A DNA stretch of 64,000 nucleotides from NCBI GenBank assembly GCA_903813345.2, contig CAIIXF020000001.1, positions 15,128,001 to 15,192,000 of the forward strand. The letters run 5' to 3'. Below, one piece after another: positions 39,525-55,307 of this stretch (its first letter is position 1; every line of letters begins with the position of its first letter). The stretch comes from Owenia fusiformis. Its lineage: Eukaryota. The position numbers and the translations under genes were made by a program. The notes below the pieces were generated by a model that saw nothing but the letters and a program-made list of their open reading frames with translations, did not search any database and was not told the DNA's origin.

Positions 39525-40090
39525 TATTTCCAACCTACCTAGACCAACTATTATATGAACTCAGACTTTGATTTCTATGGTCAGAAACTTAAATTCATGG
39601 CCAGAACGGGATGTTTTGGCCTTCGCTCCGACCTTCAAAGATGGGGTCAAGGCAATGGTATATGTCTCTTTTGTAACCTCAATGTTAAAGATACTGTACA
39701 GCATAGACTTTTTGTCTGTCCCTACTTTGGTAGTGATAGGAATGTATTTTTCAATAATGTTGTGTCAAACTGCAACCACCAACTCTCCTCTGACTTTCTA
39801 GCAGGAAGTGTACAACTAAAAACATGTTGGGCTCTGGGAGATGACACTTTAATCTTGTGGGGACATGATAATTACGTGAAGTTTGACAAATATGTCAAAT
39901 TGTTTTTAAAGAAAATACATGTACAGTGCACACAATAGTCGTATGCATGTTTTTAGTGGCCTTTTGCATGATATGTTTTATCCCATTTATATTTTATATA
40001 TGATGTATTGGATGCACCGATTGAGTGCCGCTGCTCTAAAAGCGTTTTCCAAATAAATAAATAAGAAATAAAATAAAACAAATAAAATAA
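39525..40090 (+). mobile_element. 5'-truncated non-LTR retrotransposon 3' end
   Basis: ORF 39555-39938 with CLFC-x8-H-x4-C zinc knuckle, then 3' UTR and (AATAA)n tail. Confidence 0.75.
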
Positions 40091-50064: not shown

Positions 50065-53000
50065 CTAGTAACAACGTGGGGCTGGGCATGCACGTGTCTG
50101 CGTAGGGCACATTGGGTCCCTACTGTCCCGGGACTGGAGTCCGTTCTGCTGCATGAAGTACTCTGCCTCCATTCTTTCCATGTCGGGTTTCACTAGATAC
50201 AATCCATACTCGATGGATGTCATTGCAATGACACCTGCGAAAAAAATCAAAAAATGAATCAAAACTAAATGTCTTGAGTTACATATTTATTGTGAGGCCT
50301 CTGTTTTTAATTATAAGTTATCAGTTCAATTCTCAGTCATATACTTAATTTAAGTTCGATATCTGGTCATATTCGCAGACCTCGTACATTACTAAATTTA
50401 AATGCTGTAGAACATTAAATTACAAAGTCATATTTTGTCTGTATAAACTGTATATTACCAGAGTCAAAGTATGGGTAGTTGCTCCATGATCCCGAGTAGC
50501 GGACTCTGCCATCATCAACGTCACTCAAAACATCAAAAAATCCTGTCTCAGTCAATTGGAAACCACGCTTTAAAAAAGATAACGGCGATTACTTTACACC
50601 TCAAAGATGAGGTAATTTTAAAGAGGCTCTATGCCATAGGATAGCACAATCAAGACCCCTCTGGACTTTTTTGCATGTTGAGTTTCACCACACATATACC
50701 CATCTACTTACCAAAGAAGGAGTCCCAAACCCCCCTCTTTCAGTGTTAATTTTGCGATTGTGCTGGCCGACCTAATTATTTTCGAAGAAATTAATTCAAT
50801 CTAAAGTTTGAATATTCCGGGAAAGTCCTCCTGTTATCTGATTTGTCGTTGAATTTGTTTCTCATAAACCCGATTGGCTTCCTGGTTCAAGGCGCTTGTG
50901 GGCGCTTGTGTGACTCAATGGGGATTTCCCTCGATAGCCAAGGAATCGATTGTGTTTAATTATGGAGTTTGGTTGTTCTGTTGATTATTTCCGATATTTC
51001 GGCAATAATATACCCAAAAGTTATTCTAAAGATATATCCATGGTATGTGAGATATTATAATGAGCAATAACACTAGGACATCATTGATTGTCTGGGGGAG
51101 AAACCCATGGCATAATGCATCTTTAAGTTATCCTCCCTCTCCCTGCGCCGTACCCCACGCGTTCAGCAGCCACAAGACATTGGTACAGCCACTATGTCAA
51201 GAGAAAGAATGCTGGTATAATTTCAGCCAGATTCAACAGGCCACTTGGCTGTTGCCATTTTGTGCAGCTTCGTGACATAGTAGGGGGCATATCAAACAAT
51301 GCTCAATATCATTAGATGAAGTATCACTACATCTAGTACCAAGACTATCTCTTCGTCCCCGGCTCTTCGTTGTGAGAGATGGTCTTGGTTCTAGATAAAT
51401 ATCAACCACAGATCTATAATAATAATCAATATTCGATATTGTCAAGGATTATATGGTTAGTTCAAGAATAAACCGAATTTCTTTTACCTGGTCAATCCTA
51501 AGTATTCTGAGCCCAGCTTCGTAGTTGGACTGGTATGTCCAGTCGCCCTTAATGTATTGGTTGTGATCGATAGACTGTTGGGTAGAGATGAATGTGTCTC
51601 TCCAAACAGGATTCCTCAGATCTTTCACGTCCCAAAGGTATGTGTAAGTGTTCCTGAAAGATTCAGATACAGAAGTGTTTCGGGAAAATTCAAATGCAGT
51701 AAGGATAAGTAAGTTCGAGAACAGTTTCGTAACTTCCCATTTGAGTTCCTCCACAGACTACCCAAAACAATTAGTACTTTGTTTAAGCTTCTTCATGGTC
51801 TTAAAATAGGACAGAAACGTAATGGCCAATTCAAGACATAGCCGAAGTGGGAAAGCCTTGTTTGGTATAAAAAGAATCATCTAACATAGACTACCTTTCA
51901 ACCCCTTTTACAGCAAATGATGAAATTCACAAAGGAACAATGTCGATGACTCAACGACTAAACGAAAGGAAAAAAACGCTTGGAAGGTATAAGAGAATTT
52001 AAATCCGATAAACAAATTGCAGCGAATACAAATACCAAAATACAATATACAAAAACGTGGAAGTAAAGTATGATTTTTGCTACTCACTGATCACCGTTCT
52101 TCTCGTAGTATTCGTCCTGTTCGTCGTCTAATAGAAGCATTGTCTGGTCCTCAGTCAACCAACCCTTTAACACATTAAAATCAATTGAACAGTATTCTAA
52201 GATTGTTAGACCCCTTTGCATAATATAGAACCTCCAAGATGGAAAATACATTAACATAATTGTGTACAATTTAATTTTGTACAATTTTATCTTGTGCAAA
52301 GAGGCATGCCACAAAGGAAAGATATGGATTGAGGGAATTCTGACTATTTCATAAAAATGCTTTTCGGACAATAATTCATTTAATCGTTAAATAAAATAAT
52401 TGGTTACGAAGCTATTCACGAAAACAGATGAAATTGCCCCTCTCAGCATTCAGAGAGATTGTGGAAACTGATCCAATGTGATTTGTACCGTTTACAATGA
52501 GCACGTAGTTTCATCACCTGATGTGTGTATTTGGAGAGATCATATCCCATCTTGCTGACCATTACAGGGTTAGAACGGTCAGTGACATCAACAATAGTCA
52601 AAGAATCTTCGTTGTAATTGAAACAAATTTCTCTTCCAGTGTATCTGCAGATAAAACGTAACAAGTTTAATTCAGCAGTAGATGTTACAGGGATACAACA
52701 TGAATCGACCCTCTGTGTCCATGCGGTCCATTCGATTTAAATCTGTTCTATGGGTAGATTCGTAAAATGAATTTGATTGTTGACGTAACCAAAGATGCCA
52801 CTCTACTAAAATACTCTAATCAATAAATCGAGATAATGAAAATCCTCAGAGACAGAGACTGTTTGTATATTTACCTCCCATCTGGACCCCTGTAGATGAC
52901 ACACTGGGCATCGTGAGTGTAGCCATCCTCGGAATAACATCCGGCAAACACGGGCTGCTTCGGGTCTGATACATCAACCATGTGAAGACCACCTAAAACA

Positions 53001-55307
53001 TAATGTGAAAGAGTGTGCAACACTTGTAACAGACGCCAAAAACGAGTTTTGAGTGATTTTGTCAACACTTCTGTCGATACTGTCAAAATAATCAATAGCG
53101 CACCGTATGTTTTTATCAACATTATGTCTCAATACAAAAAGTAAAACCAAAATGAAAATGATAAAATCCTAATCTATGGGAAAGTGTAAAGATGTCTCAC
53201 TTGAACAAGATATGTAGTCGGACCAGTATGATCCGGATGCCCCAACGATGAAGATGGTATTTGTCTCCTCATTGGAGATAATGTTGTGAGAATTGCCGAC
53301 CTTGTTGTAGTGGAAGTCATGTGATACCACGCCAAGACTTTCCTGACCACGAAGTCTGGTCAAATCAAAGACCTGCATACCGTGACCCGATGCCTCTGAG
53401 CCAATGTAAGCGTGGTTGTTGATTACCTTAGCGTCTCTCCAGGAGCTGGTGGAGGTATGGGTAGGCAGGAAAGCGACCACAGTTGGGTTCTCGGGGTCTG
53501 GGGAAATACGGACGAATGAGGTACCTGTCGTCATACAGTGTATCACGTATTCTTCACCGTTGTCTGGATCCGTCCATCCCCAAATGTCGTTACTTTCACG
53601 GCTAGAATTTGACATAACATCAAATAATTGAATCAATAACAGATTAAGATGTCCCGGATACATTAAGTACATAAAAGGACGAGATGACCACCAATAGTAA
53701 TTTTAGACTATTCTTCTCAAATGATAAAGGCGTTAATTACTTGTAAGCATCATCATGATCCATGTCAAGGGCATCTAGGGACAAGAACGACAGTTGGTCG
53801 ATGTTATGACAAGCGAGGGGACTTGACGATCCGGGAATTGTACCAGCAGCTCCTACAAAGGCAATACTGGATGACTATTTTTTAAATCTATGATTTATAA
53901 CATGCTTATATTTTCTCCATCAATATTGCTGTCAATTATTGATAAAAATGACTAATTTACCATCGATGCATTTTCGAGGTCCGTCAGTTGGAGCCTGTCC
54001 CATGAGTTCGGGGCATGTGCCATCTTTGCGGCAACTCACTCTCTCAGCAGCACTCTTCAGTTTTTCTTTGGTCATCATCTTCATATATTGTCGGCCCGCG
54101 TCAAACTTGGTCGCTGTAAGTTCGAATGATTCCATCCTACCCTTCTTGAAGTTTGATGCGCAAGTCTCTCCTCCGCAACTGCTCCATTCTCCATACTGGC
54201 AAGTTGGTACTATTTTAAGATATCAGAAAAGTTATTTTTCATTAAATACTTAAAGCCCCGATGTTTAACCACTTAGTCTTAGCCAAAGGTCATCACAGTG
54301 CCTTGTGTCAATTTTTATTTCAAAAAGTGGTTTTTGAAGGGCTTTTTGTTCGAAAAATCATGAATTTATTTAAAACTAACTTTTAGAGGTCACACATATC
54401 TTTTAATAAGCGATAATTCACACCGAGCAATGTATACCATTTATCCCCATGTGTTTTTTGCCGAAAAAATAAGAAAATAGGTTCATTAATACGTGAGAAA
54501 TGAACACATCCATGCATGAAACTCGTCCAGAAAAAAATGCATTTCAAAAATTTAGTTCTCAAAGAAATAGTACCCATGGTACAATAATATTACTGCCACC
54601 TGAGTGATGTCACAATGAGGTCACTTAGGTTGCAAAATGTTTTTGATACGCTAAAACATTGAACTGGCACAGTACATATGACATTTTATTATTGAAATAT
54701 TGTGTCCGTTGTTCAATCTTTGGATTGGTGTTAAAAAGATAATGATTTTTGCACCTTATCGTGGGATATTGCTGATTAAAAAAATTCAATTTTGGTTGAA
54801 AAATGGCTTGAAATGAATGTTTGCGAAATGAAAAGCTGACAACTTTTTTTCAATATTCTTTTTTCTTTTCAAAATCTCTAAAGTAACCAAATAGTAAATG
54901 AGTGATGAAAACCTATTTTCTAATTACTATGACTTAAGTTTCTTACCTTGTTTTGCAAGTCCAACAGCAACTAGGGCTGCTATGGCAACAATGGAACTCC
55001 ACTATAAAAATACAAAGTGAAAATATTGTAATCGTAACCAATCAAATGAATCAAATTTTGATTACCTCGCATGATGCACTATATGATCAGAAATAGCTCT
55101 TAAAGGTCTTAAACATGTCCACAATATATAAAATAAAAGATTTCGGGTAAGTAAATTACGTACCCCGATAAGTGTACATCATTCGGATTACAAATTATTG
55201 TTCAAATAAAATGTTTGTGGAAATTATGAATCAATATCTGTTCACGTATACATATTATCTTTAGTTTCCTTATTTAGAATAAGTATATTTTAAAAGCTCC
55301 TTACCAT
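50065..55307 (-). CDS. Secreted choice-of-anchor B family (TIGR04312-like, LVIVD-repeat beta-propeller) protein, 11 exons, 528 aa
   Basis: Phase-consistent exons 55307-55305 (ATG only), 55001-54947, 54209-53961, 53852-53741, 53601-53201, 52992-52875, 52644-52518, 52164-52088, 51653-51488, 50567-50459, 50234-50065 (1587 nt). Signal peptide MWSSIVAIAALVAVGLA. Family motifs: NDIWGWTDP..GEEY, SWRDAK, GNSHN, GC..EDGYTHDAQCVIY.GPD.RY.GREIC..YNE, YTHQGW, DDEQDE, IDHNQY, YEAGLR, GSWSNYPYFDSG. Minus-strand AATAAA at 50015-50010. Confidence 0.88.
54254..54935. mobile_element. Diverged copy of the Kolobok-like family
   Basis: Colinear similarity to 17860-18687 (TTTCAAAAAGTGGTTTTTG, TTTTAGAGGTCAC, TTGGTGTTAAAAAGATAAT). 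Confidence 0.7.

Follow-up and report, generated by a model that had tools for sequence, protein, structure and literature searches.

The window, by which we mean the whole 64-kb stretch of Owenia fusiformis DNA that was analysed, carries on its minus strand a gene of eleven exons whose spliced product, P0001, is letter for letter an Owenia fusiformis database protein. A search with four paralogues/homologues revealed no second copy of the gene in the window, which holds it as a single locus. The start ATG is the 3-base coding end of an exon (55307-55305, minus strand) and the stop codon lies at 50067-50065. A preliminary description had given the range 50065-54201; the gene extends upstream of 54201, to the ATG. 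The features of the gene and protein are as follows.

50065..55307, minus strand: coding part of the gene; the spliced translation is P0001 (528 aa), and all ten introns are GT-AG
55307-55305, 55001-54947, 54209-53961, 53852-53741, 53601-53201, 52992-52875, 52644-52518, 52164-52088, 51653-51488, 50567-50459, 50234-50065, minus strand: the eleven exons
54948..55307, minus strand: signal peptide with putative cleavage, residues 1-19; hydrophobic MWSSIVAIAALVAVGLAKQ, modelled as a helix at 2-15; intron after the ATG exon
54160..54207, minus strand: N-terminal TSR half, residues 21-36, PTCQYGEWSSCGGETC; C23, C31 and C36; corresponds to strand A
54103..54159, minus strand: variable loop, residues 37-55, with KKGR at 54147-54136; gap-rich, unconserved alignment columns; pLDDT <50 at 37-39
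53971..54102, minus strand: conserved linker, residues 56-99; D.GR..M...M..K helix at 57-82 and C79-C85-P86 loop
50188..53832, minus strand: choice-of-anchor B seven-bladed beta-propeller, residues 110-488; TIGR04312 match, spanning introns
50146..50181, minus strand: C-terminal helix leading out of the propeller, residues 491-502 (DSSP)
50068..50145, minus strand: C-terminal TSR half, residues 503-528, NGLQSRDSRDPMCPTQTRACPAPRCY; C515, C522 and C527; corresponds to strands B and C

The preliminary description had read the two ends as the halves of a split spondin-type thrombospondin-1 repeat (TSR). Its motif positions on the minus strand were correct, with CQYGEWSSCGGETC at 54201-54160 (residues 23-36; the start becomes 54207 if the preceding PT is included) and NGLQSRDSRDPMCPTQTRACPAPRCY at 50145-50068, and so was its split of cysteines, exactly three per end (23/31/36 and 515/522/527). 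The halves are separated by 466 residues in one 528-residue chain. Cleavage at KKGR, which had also been proposed, is unsupported: the motif falls within a variable loop that is modelled with low confidence, and 20 aligned homologues do not conserve it. The linker that follows is conserved in two homologue alignments, and its helix is present in the AlphaFold model; C79 and C85 are missing jointly in P0014 and P0025, and a comparable helix with a C.....CP loop occurs in eukaryotic homologues devoid of TSR ends.

The choice-of-anchor B propeller and its relatives

The choice-of-anchor B model TIGR04312 matches residues 110-488 of P0001 with 391.7 bits (cut-off 100; E 3.6e-117), over positions 5-363 of its 364, and exon 4 alone scores 133.8 bits. 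This is the sole NCBIfam family found at E≤0.01 for P0001, P0082, P0310 and P0324; in the same four proteins the choice-of-anchor I model gave no NCBIfam match at E≤0.01. The LVIVD profile (PF08309) also matches P0001, with 23.4 bits for a gathering score of 20.2 (E 3.8e-05), and Foldseek against the PDB and VIA-align returned seven-bladed propellers only, with Z of about 30, covering residues 117-492, outside the TSR halves. Matches in the ESM Atlas were all below 0.9 and consisted of LVIVD clusters, partly fungal. The module lies where the preliminary description had put it, between the segments at 21-36 and 503-528.

Relatives of bacterial type align to just residues ~100-492 of P0001, and two of the 150 best representatives align end to end. 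Bacterial choice-of-anchor B proteins (TIGR04312; PF08309) are about 45-54% identical to P0001, match over the full length of the domain and have an invariant set of His, Asp and Gln in common with it. They differ from P0001 in their sorting or accessory tails, including dockerin and P-domain, and none has either TSR half; the ten introns of the Owenia gene also set it apart from them. Choice-of-anchor B proteins presumably end in a C-terminal sorting or anchor signal, a concept that we take from the name of the model. Among 55 relatives without TSR ends, Por_Secre_tail was found in 14 and CHU_C in three (17/55 together), and no Pfam match to a sorting domain was found in P0001.

The propeller had been called microbial-type, a label to be softened: the family is mainly bacterial, but sponges and a cryptist have it too, without the TSR halves at its ends. 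The proteins of Sycon, Corticium, Oscarella and Goniomonas resemble P0001 in their signal peptide, linker helix, C.....CP loop and propeller; they differ in carrying a short C.G.C motif in place of the N half, in stopping a few residues past the propeller and in falling on the opposite side of the tree from the proteins with TSR ends. On this tree, computed from the propeller only, the 52 proteins with the ends form one side of a branch with a support of 100.

Complementary ends and matched cysteines

The N half of P0001 aligns with a C..W..W..C...C segment of its homologues that corresponds to positions 1-18 of the TSP1_spondin profile (PF19028), and the C half with a Q.R.R...CP...E...C....C tail that corresponds to positions 19-49. 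At E≤10 the profile finds six of ten family members and covers two stretches in each of them; those listed are N-terminal in five members (profile 1-16 to 1-33) and C-terminal in P0082 (residues 496-524 on profile 19-49). The top match is that of P0017 (E 7.7e-08, 32.9 bits). Among solved structures, the sequence that the family profile matches best is likewise a TSR, that of F-spondin (1szl; E 0.09, profile positions 19-44). At E≤0.1, TSP1_spondin was detected in 31 of 51 full-length homologues, as opposed to 0 of 55 that are devoid of the ends. All 51 full-length proteins share C23, W28 and C515, with C31 and C522 each kept by at least 90% of them. Judged from sequence, the cysteine pattern at the ends is beyond what chance would be expected to give, because the end residues are conserved across the 51 homologues and the profile separates 31/51 from 0/55.

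The TSR match sought in P0001 itself did not appear: neither the whole protein nor its exon ORFs gave a Pfam TSR match at E≤10, and four Owenia paralogues that were tested gave no Pfam TSR match either. The TSR motif combines an aromatic W..W ladder on strand A with R.R on strand B. Most homologues display W..W and Q.R.R; P0001 has Y25..W28 in place of W..W and an irregular arginine spacing (QSRDSR, with R508 and R511). The order of cysteines in P0001 is that of a TSR, C1..C2..C3 followed by C4..C5..C6; its contiguity over ~50-60 residues is lost, the halves lying at 21-36 and 503-528. The profile matches are those of homologues, and P0001's own halves are degenerate.

These shortcomings could suggest two independent Cys-rich end pieces with a superficial likeness to a TSR and no single module. 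Such a reading would account for the missing match of P0001, for homologue scores that all stay under the Pfam gathering score of TSP1_spondin (at most 32.9 bits, with 41 required) and for an E of 0.09 in the PDB match to 1szl. We consider it improbable: each end matches its own part of one profile, the two parts being complementary, the 31/51 versus 0/55 contrast holds, the N half is modelled as disordered in a protein that has no C half (P0020, see below), and the number of cysteines is equal at both ends in 49 of 51 proteins, including those with 2/2 and 1/1.

Cysteine counts at the N and C ends are 3/3 in 35 proteins, 2/2 in 13 and 1/1 in one, the parity being broken in P0035 (3/2) and P0272 (3/4). 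In the 2/2 forms the missing cysteines are precisely C3 and C6, and P0306, like its cluster mate P0340, retains C1 and C4 alone. In TSRs the disulfides connect C1-C4, C2-C5 and C3-C6, and the matched rise and fall of the counts is what this pairing would predict. On the propeller-only tree C3 loss requires four changes; joint loss of C3 and C6 forms two independent pairs on well-supported branches and four when every branch is counted, numbers with which a sign test cannot reach significance.

The two halves also occur together: dozens of relatives have both. Both halves are absent from 252 of the 338 relatives collected, and 29 family members show the C half alone. The latter have at most 60 residues ahead of the first propeller cysteine, versus 86-110 in complete proteins, and all begin inside the linker or the propeller, without a hydrophobic signal-like N-terminus. 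Because of this short N-terminal region and of these internal starts, we read them as probable 5′-truncated ORFs. The exception is P0020, which has the N half and no C half, its chain ending 16 residues past the propeller.

Structure models, proposed architecture and competing readings

AlphaFold modelled P0001 with a mean pLDDT of 91.4 and a pTM of 0.89. The N half reaches a pLDDT of 87 (residues 21-30), with isolated beta-bridges at residues 25 and 32; the C half has values of 84, 87 and 69 and folds into a B-C hairpin (strands 504-508/518-522). In the model of the natural protein P0020, the N half has a pLDDT of 44 and no bridges, a comparison that involves two different proteins and is based on pLDDT and DSSP. 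In these models both ends of P0001 are confidently placed, and the confidence of the N half falls from 87 to 44 in P0020. A complex prediction with residues 19-52 and 495-528 of P0001 (ESMFold2, without alignment) scored 0.02 and weighs neither way. As a caveat, the bridges at residues 25 and 32 of the P0001 model could in principle pair mutually.

Taken together, the domain architecture, the complementary profile matches, the co-occurring ends, the matched cysteine numbers and the confident modelling lead us to describe P0001, with a probability of roughly 0.75, as a secreted protein in which one discontinuous, spondin-type six-Cys TSR encloses a choice-of-anchor B propeller. Residues 21-36 would provide strand A and three cysteines, and the chain would exit at the would-be A-B turn, pass through the variable loop, the 26-residue helix with its small disulfide loop, the propeller (110-488) and a short helix, and return at residues 503-528, which would supply strands B and C and the remaining cysteines, three in number. 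As the ends of the closed propeller would emerge side by side, the halves could zip into a single three-stranded TSR, with disulfides C23-C515, C31-C522 and C36-C527 predicted to tie the chain head to tail; this packing and this disulfide map we infer. We think that the TSR would act as a covalent clasp stabilising the secreted propeller; possibly it would also be a matrix- or glycan-binding handle replacing the bacterial sorting tails.

The halves might pair in trans, each N half with the C half of a different chain, to give disulfide-linked head-to-tail dimers or chains, and the sequence evidence that the halves are complementary fits this arrangement, without exception, as well as pairing in cis. 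We nevertheless hold it to be unlikely, since the monomer model places both ends confidently and since propeller topology suggests that the strands at the propeller ends (~104-127 and 475-489) lie next to each other, in favour of a single chain. A gene-model artefact, with end exons mis-joined or belonging to another gene, could draw on the thin RNA support in the sequencing runs used (exon-bin depth of at most ~1.5, no splice joints), but it is barely credible given GT-AG borders at every intron, an end-to-end architecture common to six Owenia paralogues and one Dimorphilus protein, and the same collinear architecture, uninterrupted and in one frame, on intron-free metagenome or transcript contigs of 1.6-2.9 kb from other organisms. 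A dinoflagellate spliced-leader motif was absent from the 27 transcript-like loci searched.

Comparison with known systems and implications

Against the spondin-type TSR (PF19028, 1szl), the ends of the P0001 family match profile positions 1-18/33 and 19-49 and hold six cysteines in the expected order. They differ from it by the 466 residues, including a whole propeller, that occupy the position of the A-B turn in P0001, and by the absence of the G.G turn after the third cysteine. Few extracellular modules are as common as TSRs, which, to our knowledge, have been treated as small contiguous units. We regard the finding as a probable domain-insertion form of the TSR, and one that would be new: in the papers searched on choice-of-anchor B, LVIVD/thrombospondin, TSR domain insertion and discontinuous TSRs, we found no description of a TSR split around a propeller. 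A comparable construction is that of integrin beta (PSI/hybrid/beta-I), where a small Cys-rich domain is completed by a distant segment, with a long-range disulfide around inserted domains; folds and families differ, and the likeness would be one of construction only.

Bacteria share a further seven-bladed propeller with marine invertebrates, among them Owenia and Dimorphilus: MSP130/choice-of-anchor I, for which horizontal acquisition has been argued and most of whose proteins are predicted to be GPI-anchored (PMC11878542); the main text of that paper does not mention thrombospondin. It is a family separate from that of P0001, which in NCBIfam matches TIGR04312 alone at E≤0.01.

If the proposed architecture is true, a TSR fold can be completed by chain ends ~470 residues apart, with a strand of 16 residues meeting a hairpin of 26 around a 380-residue domain, and the family offers a natural model of how a domain can be inserted into a fold that is tiny and disulfide-layered. 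It would also show a mainly bacterial propeller family fitted with a eukaryote-style extracellular module. We can tentatively imagine, as a scenario that is more doubtful than the architecture itself, that a single old insertion of linker and propeller into the A-B turn of a TSR gave rise to a family of secreted propellers, covalently "padlocked" and almost circular, in annelids and in eukaryotes for which metagenome or transcript contigs are the sole source; the TSR, once re-formed, would have taken over surface or matrix anchoring from the bacterial sorting tails, and the invariant His/Asp hub would suggest that the propeller brings a metal-dependent activity to the matrix.

The case would in addition be a warning for annotation pipelines, as a TSR annotation is missing from P0001 and from four of its five Owenia paralogues, and nothing matches at the Pfam threshold. 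The matched losses of cysteine pairs, for their part, constitute ready natural variants for probing the disulfide map.

Gene structure and transcription

GC content in this AT-rich window is about 0.30-0.39. The minus strand of the region carries one intron-rich gene, in which stop-filled stretches separate exon-sized open frames. The longest exon is 100% identical to P0001, a 528-aa "unnamed protein product" from the annelid Owenia fusiformis, and splicing of the 11 exons listed here yields P0001 exactly, with GT-AG borders at 10/10 introns.

Exons of the P0001 gene
Exons 1-6: 55307-55305, 55001-54947, 54209-53961, 53852-53741, 53601-53201, 52992-52875; minus strand; exact translation to P0001
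Exons 7-11: 52644-52518, 52164-52088, 51653-51488, 50567-50459, 50234-50065; minus strand; exact translation to P0001

Two raw-read RNA-seq runs gave sparse reads in the exon-holding bins, first mates mapping exclusively to the plus strand, and no RNA reads in intron-only bins except at high-copy repeats; at their depth of up to about 1.5, no splice joints were reported. One such repeat occupies 50616-51130, in the intron between exons 51653-51488 and 50567-50459, where the contig depth of one run, X1, exceeds 20,000 versus about 18 on the flanks, and RNA reads align at 95-99% identity and continue into unlike flanks. One X1 contig links 50615 to 51131 with 10 other letters in between, which suggests an allele lacking the 515-base insert. 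A second repeated stretch (54325-54855, X1 depth 2,000-3,800) lies in the intron that separates the signal-peptide exon from the one encoding the N-terminal cysteine motif; it includes an ORF that was considered as a signal-peptide first exon and rejected. Elsewhere in the window, a 131-aa open frame (39543-39938, plus strand) contains a C..C...H....C-like stretch reminiscent of a retroelement reverse transcriptase tail.

The propeller core

Residues 110-488 of P0001 match the NCBIfam choice-of-anchor B profile TIGR04312 over positions 5-363 of 364 (3.6e-117, 391.7 bits for a cut-off of 100 bits), and the score against LVIVD (PF08309) is above the Pfam threshold. In the AlphaFold model built from a 150-sequence alignment (mean pLDDT 91.4, pTM 0.89), residues 117-492 resemble generic seven-bladed propellers, with a Z of about 30 (Foldseek, VIA-align). 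Scanning 1.84 billion representatives returned 7337 relatives at E<=0.001; among the best 150 of these, only P0025 and P0037 align to P0001 end to end, the others being limited to about residues 100-492 (45-54% identity), which indicates that both ends are additions to a common propeller core.

Within the propeller, a set of His/Asp/Gln/Asn residues (213, 245, 300-301, 354-355, 372 and 410-412), located mostly at strand starts of successive blades, is invariant or nearly so over 150 relatives, bacterial ones included, and resembles a binding or catalytic site at the hub, perhaps one for a metal. The closest solved propeller of the same size is the Mn-dependent phosphotriesterase 5hrm (TM 0.47, Foldseek). 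Ahead of the propeller, linker cysteines C79 and C85 are suggested to form their own local disulfide, since the Owenia paralogues P0014 and P0025, encoded on other contigs, lose both together.

The cysteine-rich ends

The two three-cysteine motifs noticed in the preliminary description are indeed present on the minus strand, at residues 23-36 (54201-54160) and 503-528 (50145-50068). The best explanation for these N and C halves is a discontinuous thrombospondin type 1 repeat (TSR) clasping both ends of the propeller domain, into which a conserved linker (helix 57-82, C79-C85 loop) would bring the chain and out of which helix 491-502 would bring it.

The expected likeness to a TSR profile held for many family members and not for P0001 itself, whose ends have no Pfam match at E<=10; the Owenia copy is degenerate (Y..W and QSRDSR) and the likeness is clearer in homologues. 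When the separate ends were scanned in whole proteins, rather than concatenated, TSP1_spondin (PF19028) matched in two stretches in 6/10 proteins, the N end falling on profile positions 1-16 to 1-33 and the C end, in P0082 (residues 496-524), on positions 19-49; the best E-value among these ten was 7.7e-08, all scores being below the 41-bit gathering score. At E<=0.1, the profile was found in 31/51 full-length family members versus 0/55 homologues without ends, 14 of which carry a type IX secretion tail. The top PDB-sequence match to the family profile was the F-spondin TSR 1szl (E 0.09).

AlphaFold assigns pLDDT 87 to residues 21-30 in the N half of P0001 and places isolated bridges at residues 25 and 32. 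Values for the C half are 84, 87 and 69, with a hairpin formed by 504-508 and 518-522, and the loop past C36 is disordered. P0020, which stops 16 residues past the propeller, served as a natural deletion control and was folded with the P0001 alignment re-ordered to place it first. Its N half, more canonical than that of P0001, reaches only pLDDT 44 with zero bridges, the remainder holding at 92 overall, which suggests that the C half orders the N half in the P0001 model, the comparison being between two different proteins.

Both halves also tend to be kept or lost together, as anticipated. Of the 338 collected relatives aligned to the family HMM, both halves are absent from 252, while each end carries three cysteines in 34 and lacks the third cysteine in 13. 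An apparent C half alone occurs in 30, of which 29 have at most 60 residues ahead of the first propeller cysteine, versus 86-110 in complete proteins, and begin within the linker or propeller, marking them as 5'-truncated ORFs; the remaining one, P0250, has an unrelated Cys-rich extension. Only three have the N half alone, two being cut within the propeller, which leaves P0020 as the sole candidate for a true exception.

TSR cysteines are connected C1-C4, C2-C5 and C3-C6. By direct count, N-end and C-end cysteines are equal in 49/51 full-length proteins (3/3 in 35, 2/2 in 13 and 1/1 in one), the exceptions being P0035 (3/2) and P0272 (3/4). The 2/2 forms lack precisely the third and sixth cysteines, and P0306 keeps the first and fourth alone, as does its cluster mate P0340. 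Such matched loss is what this pairing across the ends would predict, with limited statistical weight: third-cysteine loss requires four changes on the propeller-only tree; two independent pairs lie on well-supported branches and four on all, in the same direction and too few for a sign test. Alternatively, but less probably, N and C halves may pair between molecules.

For the intramolecular TSR clasp, we infer a role in covalent stabilisation and, perhaps, in matrix binding. The proposed cleavage at a basic KKGR site was abandoned, as this site is not conserved. No description of a TSR-clasped choice-of-anchor B propeller was found in the literature searched. The nearest published parallel found is MSP130, presented in PMC11878542 as a choice-of-anchor I propeller common to bacteria and invertebrates; it belongs to a different family.

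Carriers and origin

Among named organisms, both ends occur in Owenia (six paralogues, of which one lacks the N half in its gene model), in Dimorphilus and in a EukProt entry labelled Siedleckia nematoides. Many further carriers come from contigs of 1.6-2.9 kb encoding the entire protein in a single uninterrupted match, with UTR-like flanks and, in two, a poly(A) end. The propeller and a similar linker helix also occur, without TSR ends, in Goniomonas and in the sponges Sycon, Corticium and Oscarella.

A FastTree reconstruction on 377 propeller-only columns included 98 rows (51 full-length members, 5 named end-less eukaryotes and 42/237 other candidates). A branch with support 100 separates the 52 proteins with ends from all other rows, so the TSR-ended proteins may have a single origin. 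Two eukaryote-looking architectures, P0123 (1278 aa) and P0250 (611 aa), combine a choice-of-anchor B propeller with other Cys-rich end extensions.
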